Source: Hyphomicrobiales bacterium
GTDB lineage: Bacteria > Bacteroidota > Bacteroidia > Bacteroidales > JBGRPZ01
Length of the DNA: 64,000 bases
Direction of reading: 5' to 3'
Assembly (NCBI GenBank): GCA_041725915.1
Contig: JBGRPZ010000001.1
Coordinates: 66,198-130,197, forward strand
Below the pieces are notes generated by a model, which was not told the DNA's origin, searched no databases, and worked only from the letters and a program-made list of their open reading frames with translations. Below are positions 8,839 through 55,940 of this stretch, in pieces; the first letter of the stretch is position 1; the number at the start of each line of letters is the position of its first letter. The translations under genes were made by a program, and so were the position numbers.

Positions 8839-8920
8839 GTTTTGTCGGGCTTATTTTTACTTTTGTCGGGCTTAAAACAAATACCTTCGAGCTTAAAACT
8901 ACTTTTGTCGGGCTTAAAAT
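8839..8920. repeat. Four phased copies (21-bp period) of the motif TTTTGTCGGGCTTAAAA
   Basis: GTCGGGCTTA / GTCGGGCTTA / TTCGAGCTTA / GTCGGGCTTA, with the central C at 8846, 8867, 8888 and 8909. Confidence 0.85.
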
Positions 8921-9027: not shown

Positions 9028-9609
9028 CTACTCGACTTTAAAACCAAAATTAGGCTGAATACTTTTTTCATAATTAGAATTCAAGTAGAAAGTAAAAGGA
9101 GCTTTTATCTCCTTTGGAATAGGAATCTCTATATAGTTCCACCAACCTTTACCATCAGGTAAGTTAGGTGGTTGATACTTTAGTTTTCCTTTCCATATTA
9201 GTGTTTTGTCATTTTGATAAATAGAGGCATAATAATACCCTGGATTGGCTTTTCTTTCTGAGTATCTCGTCACATATAGGAATATGATTCCTCCAGGAGC
9301 ACTTTGTTGAAGGAACTCAAGAACACCATCAGCTTCTTCCTGATCAATAGATTTATCAGATTTTATCTGTTCTCTAACCTGATCAGCAGTTTTATAAGCT
9401 ATAGTTGTGATAGGGGCAAAGTTATAGTTGGCTTGATTACCTTGACCACCACCAAATATCATGGTTATAGTATGTTCATATAAATGATGAGGTTGATTGT
9501 CAAACCAAGGACCTTCTGTCATTTCATCAGGTATAGATGATTGTGCTGATATCATGCAGGGAAATGCCAGAATGAATAGGAATAAAATATATCTAAACGA
9601 TCGATTCAT
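9028..9609 (-). CDS. Hypothetical secreted protein
   Basis: N-terminal signal peptide (FLFILAFPCMISAQ). No recognised motif. Last gene of the putative metal-uptake cluster. Confidence 0.5.
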   Translation of the reverse strand: MNRSFRYILFLFILAFPCMISAQSSIPDEMTEGPWFDNQPHHLYEHTITMIFGGGQGNQANYNFAPITTIAYKTADQVREQIKSDKSIDQEEADGVLEFLQQSAPGGIIFLYVTRYSERKANPGYYYASIYQNDKTLIWKGKLKYQPPNLPDGKGWWNYIEIPIPKEIKAPFTFYLNSNYEKSIQPNFGFKVE

Positions 9610-23544: not shown

Positions 23545-24565
23545 AATTACTTTAAAATAAAAACACTCGTTTTTTCTTCATTTCATGCAATCATTAACCT
23601 AAAGATCAAAAGCCTAAAATCTACTTTCCCCTGTATTTTTGCACATTTTCACAAATCTACATAAACACCTTGTAGTCAATGCTTTTTAGGTGTATAGCAA
23701 CAAGATATATCTTGTCACTACAGCATGTTTTATCAATAATCAAGCTCAAAAGTTAAGCGAATAAATCTCGTAGGTTTACTAATTAAAAGTAAAAGTCTAG
23801 GAGCTAAATCTCGTAGGTCTACTTACTGAAGGTAAAAGTCTAGGAACTAAATCTCGTAGGTCTACTTACTGAAGGTAAAAGTCTAGGAACTAAATCTCGT
23901 AGGTCTACTTACTGAAGGTAAAAGTCTAGGAACTAAATCTCGTAGGTCTACTTACTAAAGGTAAAAGTCTAGGAACTAAATTTCGTAGGTCTACTAACCT
24001 AATTCAAAAAGCTCCTAGGTAAATTTCGTAGGCTTTAAGGTAAATCTTATAGTTTAGTTAGTTGTGTATTGTAAATCAATTAGTTAATTCTTTTAGATCA
24101 ATTAACTTTTTCATTTTCTCAGGAAATGGATCTTTTTAGAGTCATATATAATCGAAATCTGAAGCTTTTGCTATTTAACATAACATTGGGCTTATATGTG
24201 CGATAATCTACAATTTTAAAATTGAAAGCCGAATTATCGCACTATACAGCAATTAAAAATAAGTGATAAAGCTTATAAATAAGGAAATGTAAGGATCTGG
24301 AATAAAAGTATTCCCGCTCTAAATCTTCAATAACAAATAGATTATTAAGATGAATTAATTGTAAAAGTATATTATGAACTGATTTAAAAACTCCATTTAC
24401 AATCTTTAATAAGTAGTAAGCTAAGAATAAGTTATCCCAAAAAGTACTTTAGTGCTTTTCGGAACCTTTTTAAAAGCTTAAACCGTAACATAAAAAACAG
24501 ATTATAAGCTCTTTAACTTTTTTATTATAAGTAGTTTTTAAACTACTTCATCATGATAAGTGAAG
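23545..24565. repeat. Dispersed non-coding element, copy B (expanded)
   Basis: 23545-23790 and 24360-24565 align with the reverse complement of copy A. The interior carries a 43-bp tandem array plus about 300 nt with no counterpart in A. Confidence 0.8.
23763..24050. repeat. 43-bp tandem repeat, about 6-7 copies
   Basis: Unit aaatctcgtaggtctacttactgaaggtaaaagtctaggaact starts at 23763, 23806, 23849, 23892 and 23935, with decaying copies at 23978 and 24021. The central copies are near-identical. Confidence 0.95.
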
Positions 24566-32336: not shown

Positions 32337-32409
32337 TGATTGATCGGGGGCTCGAACCCCGGACCCTCTGCTTAAAAGGCAGATGCTCTACCAGCTGAGC
32401 TAATCAATC
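32337..32409 (-). tRNA. tRNA-Lys (anticodon UUU), copy 1
   Basis: GATTGATTAGCTCAGCTGGTAGAGCATCTGCCTTTTAAGCAGAGGGTCCGGGGTTCGAGCCCCCGATCAATCA. Canonical cloverleaf with anticodon loop CTTTTAA. Confidence 0.92.
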
Positions 32410-32423
32410 AAAAAGAAAAAAAG

Positions 32424-32496
32424 TGATTGATCGGGGGCTCGAACCCCGGACCCTCTGCTTAAAAGGCAGATGCTCTACCAGCTGAGCTAATCAATC
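32424..32496 (-). tRNA. tRNA-Lys (anticodon UUU), copy 2
   Basis: Sequence identical to copy 1, 87 nt away, separated by an A-rich spacer. Confidence 0.92.
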
Positions 32497-35111: not shown

Positions 35112-36386
35112 ATGTTTATGCGTAGAATTGTTTGTTTTGGACCTGGTCCAATGTTTAAGGGTGGTATTGCTAATTATAATACTTCTTTAGCTAAAACTCT
35201 GGATAAAATATCAGAATGTGAAGTATATATTGTTTCATGGACTCAACAGTATCCTGCTATTATTCCTCGTGATTTTATTGATAGAAGCAGTTATTCTGAC
35301 CAACTTGAGGGTACTAATATAAAAGTAAAGTATATAACAAATTATAACAATCCATTTTCATGGATAAAGACTTGTAAGTATATAAAGTCTTTAAATCCTG
35401 AAAAGATTATATTTCAATGGAGTTTGGCTATTCAAGGGCCTCCTATGGGTTATATAGCTTCCTGGCTTAGAAAGAATACCGCTTCAGAAATAGTTTTTGA
35501 CTTGCATTTTGTTGCTCAAAAAGAAGTATCTGCATTAGATAGAAAGCTCTTGAGGATAGGAATAAAGAATGCTGATACTTATATAGTCCATTCAAAGCAA
35601 ACTTCCAAAGAGTTAATAGAATTCTTCCCTAATAGAAAGTTTGAAGTAGTCGAAGGTTGTCAAAAGACAAATGGTACTGGTATAAAGATTATACAGCTAT
35701 ATCATCCCGTATATGATATGTTTGAGTATCATTCTGATTTTAATGTTGACGCTTTCAAGGAAAGTTTAAACCTGAAGAAACATGTCTTTTTATTCTTTGG
35801 ATTTATAAGAAAGTATAAAGGTCTTCATAATTTGATTGAATCTTTCGCAAAGCTTTCTGAGAGAAGAGATGATGTGTCTTTGTTGATTGTAGGGGAGTCC
35901 TTTTGGCATACTCTTGATAAAAAGAAGTTAAGCACAAAGATTAAGAATGGGATCTTTTCTTTTGCAAAGAGCTTGTTTCTGAAAAAAACTGATGATGAAA
36001 GGGAATATAGACCCCTTGATCTTATTAAGAAGTTTGGAATAGAAGATAAAACCGCAGTTGTAAATACTTTCGTCGCGAATGAAGATGTTCACAAGTATTT
36101 TCAGTCTAGTGATAGTTTGGTTCTGTTTTATGATAAAGCTTCTCCTTCTGGCGTTGGGTCTATAGCATATAATTTCAAAATGCCTTTGTTGGTTAGTGAG
36201 ATTGAGCATCTGGAAGAGATGGTAGAAGATGGATTTAATGGATATGTTGCAAATCCTAAAGATATTGAAGATATGGTCAATGTTCTTGAGAAATCAATAG
36301 AACAGCCTATAAATAAAGATAATGTTCAGATTGTGAAAGATCGGTTGAGTTGGGAAAATTATGCTAACTCTATACTTATTGAATAA
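35112..36386 (+). CDS. Family 4-like (GT-B fold) glycosyltransferase
   Basis: 424 aa. C-terminal half has FLFFGFIRKYKG, LLIVGE and EDGFNGYV, which is a GT-B/GT4-type pattern. Confidence 0.75.
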   Translation: MFMRRIVCFGPGPMFKGGIANYNTSLAKTLDKISECEVYIVSWTQQYPAIIPRDFIDRSSYSDQLEGTNIKVKYITNYNNPFSWIKTCKYIKSLNPEKIIFQWSLAIQGPPMGYIASWLRKNTASEIVFDLHFVAQKEVSALDRKLLRIGIKNADTYIVHSKQTSKELIEFFPNRKFEVVEGCQKTNGTGIKIIQLYHPVYDMFEYHSDFNVDAFKESLNLKKHVFLFFGFIRKYKGLHNLIESFAKLSERRDDVSLLIVGESFWHTLDKKKLSTKIKNGIFSFAKSLFLKKTDDEREYRPLDLIKKFGIEDKTAVVNTFVANEDVHKYFQSSDSLVLFYDKASPSGVGSIAYNFKMPLLVSEIEHLEEMVEDGFNGYVANPKDIEDMVNVLEKSIEQPINKDNVQIVKDRLSWENYANSILIE

Positions 36387-36410: not shown

Positions 36411-36438
36411 TAAGCAGCTTTTATAGCTGCTTTTTTTA
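36411..36438 (+). terminator. Terminator after the GT4 gene
   Basis: GCAGCT-TTTAT-AGCTGC followed by TTTTTTTA. Confidence 0.7.
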
Positions 36439-36461
36439 TTTATCATTTTATAGAATAAATT

Positions 36462-36540
36462 CCCTCGGGCTTAAAATGAAAAACAAGCCCGACAAAAGTA
36501 ATTTTAAGCCCGTGCTTTTTAATTCTCTCGGGCTTGTTTT
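36462..36540. repeat. Four GCCCG-core motifs at exact 21-bp spacing, in orientation + - - +
   Basis: ctcgggcttaaaa (core centre 36468), aagcccgacaaaag (36489), ttaagcccgtg (36510), ctcgggcttg (36531). Same motif family as 8839-8920. Confidence 0.85.
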
Positions 36541-36686
36541 TTCTTTCATAAAAAGAGAAGTTGTTAACTAAACTTTTTATAGTACAAATGCTCTTTATTT
36601 TAATAAAGATCAATATTCTTTTATAACTTTATATATCAATACCTTCCAATACTCCCAATTTATAGAAATCCATTTAACCTTAACTC

Positions 36687-38024
36687 ATGGTAGAGCTTGA
36701 TAAAAAGTTTGTAAGACTTAGATGGCCTGTGTTAATTATGATTTGTTTGGCTTCTTTTGGTATGTTATATTTTTTATCTCTTTTATATCCATTGAAAGAG
36801 ACTTTAATAGAAGAATTTTCATTTACAAATTACGATTTTGGTTTTGTTTTTTCTGTCTATGCTATTCCTAGCATATTTCTATTGATGGGAATATTTGCAG
36901 GGATTTTGATTGATCGTTTTGGAGCAAGAATAACAGGGTTTGTCTTTTCTGTATTGTTGATTATAGGAGTGTTGATTATAGTGTATGCGACTACTGAATT
37001 CTTCAATAAAGGAGGTCCTTTTTATAGTATTTTTGATTCTTTTTGGCAGGAATGTTCACCCGCAGCAAAGCTGATGGCTGTAGGATTGTTCTTTTTTGGT
37101 ATGGGAGGAGAATCATTGTTCTTGGTGATGACACGATTGATTATTAATTGGTTTAAAGGTAGAGAGATTGCGTTAGCATTTGCTCTTAGTTATACATTTG
37201 GTAAGCTAGGTTCATCGGCAGGAATAGCATTAACTCCAATCTTAAAGAATGCTATCAATTGGCAATTTTCCTTATATGTTGGATTAGTGGTTTTCTTATT
37301 TACAATTCTAGCTTTTAATCTTTTATTTATCCTTAAGAAATTCAATCCTAAGATAGATAATGAGTCAGAAGATACTCCATTTAAGATTAAAGATTTACGA
37401 CATTTAATAAAAGCCCCAATATTTATCATATTCATATTGGTAGCTGTAGCCTTTTATGCTGCTTATGATCCGTTGATAGTTTTTGGATCAGATTTATTGA
37501 AGAATGAGTATCTATTATCACTAGAGCAAAGTACTCAGGAGATTTCATTCTTATTGATATTGACGGCCTTATTTTCTCCGGTTTTTGGATACCTTGTTGA
37601 TAAGAAAGGTTTAGGTTATCTGTTTTTGATAATTGGTAGTTTTCTTCTTTTGATAGTATTTACACTTTTATTGCTAGATGTTGCTTACCCTACAGTTTTA
37701 ATGTTTATTGCTGGCTTAGCATTATCATTGTTTGCATCTTCGATTTATCCAGTGATAGCATCTTCAGTAGATAAACGTATTTCAGGAACTGCATTTGGAG
37801 TGATTTCTTCTGCTGAGAATTTAGGTTCATGGGTAGCTACATTAAGTATAGGTTATTTAATAGAGATATTTAATCCGAAGATAGGGATGCAGATGGATCA
37901 GTTAAAGATGATGACCTATGATTATTCATCAGTAGAAATTTTGATAATAGGCTTTATGGCTTTGTGTGTATTATTTTCTATTCTCATTTATAGAAATAGG
38001 TCGAAAAAAGTAGAACTGAAATAA
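36687..38024 (+). CDS. MFS transporter (paralog 1)
   Basis: 445 aa with about 12 TM helices. Clear paralogy with the next gene (YDFGFVFSVYAIPS...DRFGARIT...FNKGGPFYSIFDSFWQECSPAAKLMAVG). Confidence 0.8.
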   Translation: MVELDKKFVRLRWPVLIMICLASFGMLYFLSLLYPLKETLIEEFSFTNYDFGFVFSVYAIPSIFLLMGIFAGILIDRFGARITGFVFSVLLIIGVLIIVYATTEFFNKGGPFYSIFDSFWQECSPAAKLMAVGLFFFGMGGESLFLVMTRLIINWFKGREIALAFALSYTFGKLGSSAGIALTPILKNAINWQFSLYVGLVVFLFTILAFNLLFILKKFNPKIDNESEDTPFKIKDLRHLIKAPIFIIFILVAVAFYAAYDPLIVFGSDLLKNEYLLSLEQSTQEISFLLILTALFSPVFGYLVDKKGLGYLFLIIGSFLLLIVFTLLLLDVAYPTVLMFIAGLALSLFASSIYPVIASSVDKRISGTAFGVISSAENLGSWVATLSIGYLIEIFNPKIGMQMDQLKMMTYDYSSVEILIIGFMALCVLFSILIYRNRSKKVELK

Positions 38025-40311: not shown

Positions 40312-40361
40312 CTTGTTGTCTTGGGAGAAAAGTCCGACATCTTGAGAGAAAAGTCCGACAT
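40312..40361. repeat. Two 21-bp tandem units cttgRgagaaaagtccgacat, preceded by a partial unit
   Basis: Units at 40320-40340 and 40341-40361. The core aagtccgaca resembles aagcccgaca of the 8.8-kb and 36.5-kb arrays. Confidence 0.8.
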
Positions 40362-55640: not shown

Positions 55641-55909
55641 ATTCCCCTCTTTATAAACGTGATTTTTCCGCCTTGAGAATTTTGAGTTTCCGCCTTGAAG
55701 AAGTAAATTCTTCCCGTTGATAATCTTTGTTCGCCTCCTTAAGTTGGTGTAGTCTCCTCCTTAAGATGAGAGTCTGTCCCTTGATGAATACATATTTGTC
55801 CCTTGATGAACACATATTTGCCTTTTGATGCACCAAAACAAGGTCTATTTTGAATAAAAATTCATGTTTTGATGAATGAAGATGCGCTGTATTTTGAATA
55901 AAAATTCAT
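55641..55909. repeat. Degenerate tandem array, about 12 units in a 22-bp register
   Basis: TTGA/TTAA cores at 55673, 55695, 55717, 55739, 55761, 55781, 55803, 55825, 55850, 55869 and 55894, with a weaker unit at 55651. Neighbouring units are pairwise near-identical (tttccgccttga x2, ctcctccttaag x2, tgtcccttgatgaa x2, tattttgaataaaaattcat x2). Confidence 0.85.
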
Positions 55910-55940
55910 TGTTTATAAGATTTTATTATGTGTAATGACA

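Follow-up and report, generated by a model that had tools for sequence, protein, structure and literature searches.

A phased array between a glycosyltransferase gene and a transporter gene

The window analyzed here is a 64,000-nucleotide stretch of DNA (C1:66198-130197) in a draft Bacteroidales genome (G000) of 3.88 Mb with 33% G+C in 123 contigs. Between a gene encoding a GT4-type glycosyltransferase and the first of two genes encoding MFS transporters, the window contains a 300-bp spacer, in which a terminator is followed by four short GCCCG cores. The features of the locus, numbered by their positions in the window, are as follows:

35112..36386, plus strand: GT4-type glycosyltransferase gene, the upstream neighbor (Pfam Glycos_transf_1, 9e-19)
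36412..36442, plus strand: intrinsic-terminator-like hairpin of the GT4 gene (36412-36432, terminator scan) and its T run
36454..36551, no strand: array element of ~95-99 bp with four 21-bp units, its extent given by homology to other copies of the family (blastn)
36458..36478, minus strand: unit 1, core CTCGGGCTT (= AAGCCCGAG), centre 36468
36479..36499, plus strand: unit 2, core AAGCCCGAC followed by AAAAGTAATTTT, centre 36489
36500..36520, plus strand: unit 3, core AAGCCCGTG followed by CTTTTT, centre 36510
36521..36541, minus strand: unit 4, core CTCGGGCTT, centre 36531, with a possible 14-15-bp stem with unit 2
36687..38024, plus strand: MFS transporter gene, the downstream neighbor (Pfam MFS_1, 1e-46)

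The central bases of the GCCCG/CGGGC motifs are located at 36468 (-), 36489 (+), 36510 (+) and 36531 (-), and the units are therefore spaced by 21/21/21 bp in the orientation - + + -. The core layout of 36462-36540 is CTCGGGCTT-N12-AAGCCCGAC-N12-AAGCCCGTG-N12-CTCGGGCTT, with the four cores at 36464-36472, 36485-36493, 36506-36514 and 36527-36535, respectively; unit 1 is of the terminal “AAGCCCGAGRGAATTTATT” type, i.e., the unit that closes most arrays. Across the window, AAGCCCG occurs 11 times against 1.28 expected, a count reached in none of 100 shuffles. The array begins about 26-30 bp past the GT4 terminator and ends 147 nt before the ATG of the MFS gene. Both the geometry and the setting described in the initial annotation, namely four GCCCG cores exactly 21 bp apart with outer and inner pairs in opposite orientation, past the GT4 terminator and ~150 nt before the first MFS gene, are thus confirmed. 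Elsewhere in the window, two minus-strand tRNA genes (32337-32409 and 32424-32496), 15 bp apart and with identical Rfam scores, are probably a tandem duplicate.

The array belongs to a family of 19 intergenic arrays

A weight matrix was built from the units, and both strands of the genome were scanned with it. Neighboring matches are separated by 21 bp (43 times), 42 bp (26 times), 63 bp (13 times) or 84 bp (twice), and by almost nothing else. These matches form 19 arrays, mostly of four units each, which we refer to as the AAGCCCGA family. Each 21-bp unit is composed of a 9-bp core, AAGCCCGAS, and a 12-bp A/T spacer with the consensus AAAAGTAATTTT; variants of the core are AAGCTCGA, AAGCCTGA and AAGCCCGT. 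Among the 12 larger arrays, five are all-direct and seven contain one or two inverted units, nearly always terminal, in the patterns - + + +, - + + - and - - - +. The GCCCG centre stays on the 21-bp lattice regardless of the orientation of its unit, and this ability of units to flip on a fixed lattice is a new observation. Since 21 bp is about two helical turns, the proposal in the initial annotation that all sites face the same side of the helix agrees with the spacing; however, lattice-preserving flips could also arise neutrally via recombination between the near-palindromic A/T spacers.

All 19 arrays are intergenic and occupy long spacers, of 300-2900 bp versus a genome median of 136 bp. 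The genome scan suggested in the initial annotation therefore yields both the 21-bp phasing and the intergenic bias. Co-directional spacers host 17 of the 19 arrays versus 55% expected by spacer length (p = 0.0014), and divergent promoter regions are avoided; the distance from an array to the next start codon ranges from 19 to 875 bp. The window copy matches those at C21:43503-43601 (80% over 99 bp), C4:47617-47672 (93%), C2:9036-9094 (90%) and C6:12718-12811, over 56-99 bp at 74-93% identity. In these blastn comparisons, homology ends at window positions 36454 and 36551, and the flanks are not in common. A second member of the family is present in the window itself:

8839..8920, minus strand: sister array of the same family, four direct units with centres at 8848/8869/8890/8911

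This sister array, which the initial annotation had rightly placed in the same family, has its four minus-strand units 21 bp apart, the third of them degenerate (TCGAGCTT), and lies 13 bp past the terminator of gene 9028-9609(-).

Pfam assignments of the genes flanking the 19 arrays include GT4/MFS, PfkB, AraC/M49 peptidase, succinyl-CoA ligase/RelA-SpoT, 2-oxoglutarate dehydrogenase, RecQ and several T9SS cargo proteins, i.e., overall metabolic, transport or T9SS cargo functions. A regulon was rejected on account of these mixed functions, and iterons or a partition centromere were rejected given 19 loci with such neighbors. An element that targets terminators was likewise discarded, as only 4 of the 19 arrays lie within 100 bp of one. 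Several arrays (on C9, C36, C14 and C42) are found upstream of T9SS adhesin genes.

AraC/XylS- and LytTR-type proteins use 9- to 17-bp repeats that are 21 bp apart from centre to centre. A regulator of such a type, with 21-bp-spaced half-sites, would fit the geometry of a 9-bp core plus a 12-bp spacer, and the array at C2:59466 lies 263 bp behind an AraC-family gene. However, that is just one of 19 arrays beside an AraC-type gene, a common gene class, and the neighbors have no regulon-like coherence. Moreover, such proteins normally use two promoter-near sites, not four or five units at variable distances. We consider a regulator of this kind improbable.

Folding potential of the array

The inverted units raise the question of whether the array acts as an RNA hairpin or a cruciform, either as a back-up terminator or stabilizer of the GT4 transcript or as an attenuator in the MFS leader. 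The window copy does fold better than its shuffles (z -3.3 on the plus strand and -4.8 on the minus strand) owing to a 14-15-bp stem in which units 2 and 4 pair, and its position shortly past the GT4 terminator would suit such a role. However, the all-direct sister array has no such advantage over its shuffles (z +0.5 and +2.2), so a hairpin is not what defines the family, in which five of the 12 larger arrays are all-direct. Where units do pair, they mostly mismatch at the variable core positions without consistent compensation, as judged from unit sequences read by eye, and few arrays are close to a terminator in the first place (4 of 19, see above). Rfam has no match at the array; its sole matches in the window are three tRNAs, and a known structured RNA was rejected accordingly. 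The terminator scan finds the GT4 terminator at 36412-36432 alone, not the array. A hairpin or cruciform role is thus very unlikely, and the statement in the initial annotation that the array is not a hairpin terminator holds for the all-direct sister array, but has to be qualified for the window copy, which can form the stem.

REP elements with a RAYT partner were also excluded, because the direct array does not surpass its shuffles in folding and the sole PF01797 match in the genome, at 21.4 bits, is below the cut-off and lies on C31, a contig with none of the 19 arrays.

No counterpart of the family was found in the congener or in 150 genomes of the order

In G001, the only congener examined (92% complete), the GT4 gene is 69% identical at the DNA level, and the orthologous GT4-MFS spacer, of only ~115 bp, contains no array. 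Conservation at orthologous loci, to which the initial annotation had tied its reading, is therefore not observed. By pattern and BLAST searches, the AAGCCCGA family was not found anywhere in G001, and in 150 other genomes of the order there were chance-level matches only. A pattern scan of viral contigs gave no matches, and a metagenome scan with AAGCYCGA-N9-TTTTAAGCYCGA gave 10 matches, all unrelated. In a scan of a genome collection for three AAGCYCG motifs at 21 bp, the matches listed were unrelated, mostly GC-rich coding heptad repeats, and hence uninformative.

Such a narrow distribution is consistent with a lineage-specific dispersed minisatellite or MITE-like repeat that spreads neutrally or merely persists behind genes. 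The copy next to an HU-HIG gene (see below) would then be one more insertion, and the distal copies would have neither a dedicated binder nor a function. A precedent exists in the Bacteroidales, the BrickBuilt repeats of Porphyromonas gingivalis (Klein et al. 2015, PMC4596501), which resemble the AAGCCCGA family in having tandem units of about two helical turns without spacers (23 nt versus 21 here) and a species-restricted set of ~19 strictly intergenic copies (19 in BrickBuilt). The limitation of homology to the ~95-bp array, the absence of the array from the spacer of the congener and of the family from all the scans above, and the heterogeneity of the neighboring genes are all in line with this explanation. 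The bias toward co-directional spacers and away from divergent promoters is in line with it as well, since this bias is also expected of a tolerated selfish or neutral repeat under selection against promoter disruption.

However, BrickBuilt elements have leader and tail subunits with small inverted-repeat ends, whereas the copies compared here lose their similarity where the units end and have no evident leader, tail or terminal inverted repeats; in addition, unit orientation can flip in AAGCCCGA arrays. A BrickBuilt-type MITE in the strict sense was rejected, as the - + + - arrays have first and last units in the same orientation and the + + + + arrays lack inverted ends. Target-site duplications are not evident by eye in the A/T-rich flanks, which is a weak test. 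The neighborhood lacks a transposase, the genome encodes no Y1 transposase that reaches the Pfam cut-off, and slippage alone gives no inverted units on an exact lattice. In PMC4596501 no link to an HU-like gene is proposed, and its table has one copy beside the gene of a PF00216 DNA-binding protein (PGN_0872).

Most HU-HIG genes have phased arrays on their 3′ side

The genome encodes 18 full-length paralogues that combine an HU-like domain (PF14848) with a C-terminal Ig-like DUF4469 (PF14734), the HU-HIG proteins. An array lies within 200 bp downstream of 16 of these 18 genes versus 4.0% of 2410 genes (Fisher p = 1.6e-21; the comparison set consists of crude gene calls, and arrays with a period of 20-24 or 41-46 were counted). 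These arrays start -6 to 186 bp past the stop codon, and their unit sequence differs gene by gene; a 17th gene, C2:41214-41942, is followed by a weak two-unit repeat. A terminator hairpin is present between stop codon and array in most cases, and in 8-9 of 19 cases the gene that follows is convergent, which argues that the array belongs to the 3′ side of the HU gene. It probably lies outside the mRNA of that gene, and it is not an operator of the following promoter.

The linkage recurs in other genomes of the order, where 17 of 23 loci, from nine genomes, have a 22-23-bp or 44-46-bp array just behind the HU-HIG gene, again with unrelated units; HU-HIG genes are present in 10 of 101 sampled genomes. 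A dispersed minisatellite leaves unexplained why a different array occupies the same slot at 16 of 18 genes here and at 17 of 23 loci elsewhere. A home array accompanied by distal copies is found in 11 of 16 gene-linked families, which have 1 to 15 other loci, and in the congener the two gene-linked arrays examined have one or two distal copies each. Paralogues that are 62-74% identical carry unrelated arrays (e.g., C19 and C122 in G000, and L190 and L198 in G066), indicating that arrays turn over faster than the proteins diverge. Because gene-linked units are unrelated between genomes and between paralogues, fast turnover is expected of this HU-HIG-linked class. The loci compared for array turnover were L193, L206, L209, L211 and L215 of G001, together with loci of G030, G036, G058, G066, G068, G078, G090 and G096.

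Besides the full-length paralogues, there are 15 short ORFs (112-164 aa) that share 21-34% identity with the N-terminal HU portion of paralogue C14:3586-4314 and are missed by Pfam:

C50:6963-7373, C22:45991-46473, C47:20784-21188, C10:35106-35573, C12:13393-13731 and ten more: short HU-like ORFs

Behind ten of the 15, at -29 to 112 bp, lies a 21- or 42-44-bp array; the ORFs represent an HU-only subfamily or, alternatively, truncated copies. The presence of 18-34 HU-like gene-array pairs in one genome is new, as is the finding that gene-linked arrays, besides being private to their gene, recur at unrelated loci in up to 18 distal copies.

The home copy of the family and its candidate binding protein

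Behind paralogue C2:8140-8904, the slot is occupied by a single array, C2:9040-9123 of the AAGCCCGA family, located 136 bp past the stop codon and 71 bp past the terminator of this gene. The encoded protein, of 254 aa, is composed of an HU-like domain and a C-terminal Ig-like DUF4469; both Pfam scores are slightly below cut-off (HU-DNA_bdg, 29.6 bits against 30; DUF4469, 21.7 against 22.6), and the protein scores 255 bits against an HMM of its paralogues. A single-sequence PDB search with the protein found nothing, so a profile search was needed; the profile of the 18-protein family matches PDB 4FMR at 3e-16, and classical HU more weakly. Consistent with this, the AlphaFold2 model (pLDDT 86.7) has 4FMR as its top structural match (8e-14 over 242 columns). 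C2:8140-8904 is therefore a bona fide member of the HU-HIG clade, within its Ig subclade. Among 5.8 billion proteins, a word-based search detected no close relatives of the protein, and the best match in G001 is only 29% identical, i.e., there is no orthologue; array family and protein are co-absent from the congener.

With 13-18 loci besides the home copy, the AAGCCCGA family is among the most dispersed gene-linked families. Distal arrays as leftovers of decayed HU genes were ruled out, as tblastn and the family HMM came up empty in 18 array-bearing spacers; the arrays therefore spread as arrays. Having no HU-HIG gene or remnant nearby, the window array is one such distal member. The probability that one of 19 arrays falls in some HU-HIG 3′ slot by chance is 0.16-0.21, so the assignment to this protein rests on the general gene-array rule, not on the AAGCCCGA family alone. 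On that rule, it becomes possible to link the 21-bp AAGCCCGA family with a single paralogue, which is new.

A proposed docking array

We propose that the window array is a phased docking array for the product of C2:8140-8904, and we assign this reading a probability of about 0.5. Each unit, with its 9-bp core and 12-bp A/T spacer, would be a docking site for the protein, and four sites two helical turns apart would place the bound proteins on one face of the DNA, allowing cooperative binding. A small nucleoprotein block would thereby be formed immediately past the GT4 terminator, 147 nt upstream of the MFS gene, where it could keep the two transcription units insulated from each other or modulate the MFS promoter. 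Genetic linkage suggests that the array in an HU-HIG slot is bound by the product of that gene; distal copies may be bound too, and through them the expression of GT4 or MFS might be affected. The cooperative binding of a regulator or nucleoid protein put forward in the initial annotation is thereby partly supported, with a phased genome-wide family and, by linkage, an HU-HIG candidate; the neighbors of the arrays do not resemble a regulon.

Several observations weigh against docking. Dyad symmetry of the AAGCCCGA unit is 5 of 9 pairs versus 5.2 in shuffles, and among 35 gene-linked units only 7 have significant symmetry; the argument from a pseudo-palindrome, i.e., a dimer site, was dropped because the symmetry is no better than chance. 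The array-flanking genes are functionally mixed and their start codons lie at widely differing distances (19-875 bp). Paralogues as similar as 62-74% have unrelated arrays, and the avoidance of divergent promoters would be expected of tolerated selfish repeats as well. Based on structure 4FMR, Burroughs et al. (PMC5499826) argued that the Ig domain narrows the HU clasp, making classical DNA binding unlikely; they regarded sequence specificity as improbable for the HU-HIG family and saw no conserved linkage. In view of these caveats, the BrickBuilt-like minisatellite is kept as a substantial rival, albeit a rather unlikely one.

A broader and more tentative extension of the docking reading, somewhat doubtful as it stands, is that each of the 18-34 fast-evolving HU-like paralogues may recognize a private 21-23-bp word. 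Home array and distal arrays together would then amount to a multi-channel “address code” that organizes or insulates transcription units, or else to what an arms race has left behind, with HU-HIG proteins binding and taming proliferating minisatellites. If so, a family for which Burroughs et al. considered sequence specificity unlikely would be a set of sequence-specific array binders. Few DNA-binding-fold families of Bacteroidota are as expanded as HU-HIG, which reaches ~20 copies in a single species, or as poorly understood. As to its function, the one published proposal that we found is a conflict-related role without sequence specificity (PMC5499826), and DUF4469 has no mention in the searchable literature. 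The sole paper found to cite PF14848/PF14734 (PMC12724145) annotates a Treponema denticola gene, TDE_2259, which adjoins the BspA-type adhesin gene TDE_2258. If the arrays are docking sites, each paralogue acquires a testable target set, here 19 loci for one protein, including the GT4/MFS junction. Many puzzling 21-23-bp “iteron-like” arrays in Bacteroidales genomes would then also have a common explanation.

Comparison with known systems

In sopC, which lies behind sopB on plasmid F, and in the ~22-bp iterons of plasmids, tandem phased units are located beside the gene of the protein that binds them. The arrays described here are likewise tandem, helically phased and directly beside a gene, namely that of the HU-HIG candidate binder. 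They differ in being chromosomal and present at many loci, as 18-34 gene-array pairs, with no ParA or Rep partner noticed adjacent.

REP/BIME elements of enterobacteria are dispersed intergenic repeats, some of which contain IHF sites. Like these, the arrays are dispersed and intergenic, favor positions behind genes, contain either orientation within a cluster and are associated with the HU/IHF family. In contrast to REP/BIME, the units are not self-complementary hairpins, there is no RAYT-type Y1 transposase above cut-off, and the 21-bp lattice is strict.

By profile and fold, C2:8140-8904 and its 17 paralogues belong to the Ig-fused HU-HIG subclade (PF14848/PF18291 plus PF14734 DUF4469; PDB 4FMR; PMC5499826), and their lineage-specific expansion and fast divergence in this genome match the description by Burroughs, Kaur, Zhang and Aravind (2017, PMC5499826). 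What differs is the phased array behind the terminator of nearly every gene, many with distal copies, where PMC5499826 reports no conserved linkage.

Other array families in the same genome

Tandem Repeats Finder, run on the whole genome, shows a sharp excess of repeats at periods 21 (131 raw), 22 (93) and 23 (45), with harmonics at 42-46. Merged, these repeats amount to 269 arrays of dozens of unrelated unit families. Strong arrays (score >= 80) are intergenic in 140 of 146 cases, though ~79% of the genome is coding, and positions within 200 bp downstream of a gene hold roughly twice as many arrays as upstream ones (96 versus 44). Examples in the window are 23762-23995 (= C1:89959-90192) and 55775-55914 (= C1:121972-122111). 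A further one is the site at 40312-40361:

40319..40361, plus strand: array of two units with a 21-bp period, from a family (AAAAGTCCGACA) that is similar but distinct and has further arrays elsewhere

The initial annotation had taken this site for a diverged form of the window array. It does consist of two real units 21 bp apart, but they are of the separate AAGTCCGACA family, which has arrays on eight other contigs; the cores AAGTCCGACA and AAGCCCGACA are one base apart. The home array of the AAGTCCGACA family, C18:40969-41223, comprises nine ACTTCTCSGACTTTTTCACAG units and then three AAAAGTCCGACATTTT units, and lies 18 bp behind a short HU-HIG gene without an Ig domain (C18:41241-41666; PF18291, 90.6 bits).

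Arrays also break assemblies, and several families are found at contig ends in this genome. The most abundant 21-bp family, AAAGTCTAGGAGTTTTATTTC, sits at many of them (e.g., C24:1-76, C37:1-136, C51:1-119, C65:1-77, C88:1-94, C97:1-98, C123:1-140 and C8:69433-69551) and therefore probably breaks the assembly there; the short HU-like ORF C10:35106-35573 is followed, after 77 bp, by a AAAGTCTAGGAGTTTTATTTC copy. The CTCGAGTGTTTGG family has its home copy behind paralogue C4:16713-17459 and further arrays at C2:7764-7844 and C2:42287-42370. These two copies are located 296 and 345 bp upstream of the HU-HIG genes C2:8140-8904 and C2:41214-41942, respectively, an arrangement that hints at cross-talk between paralogues.
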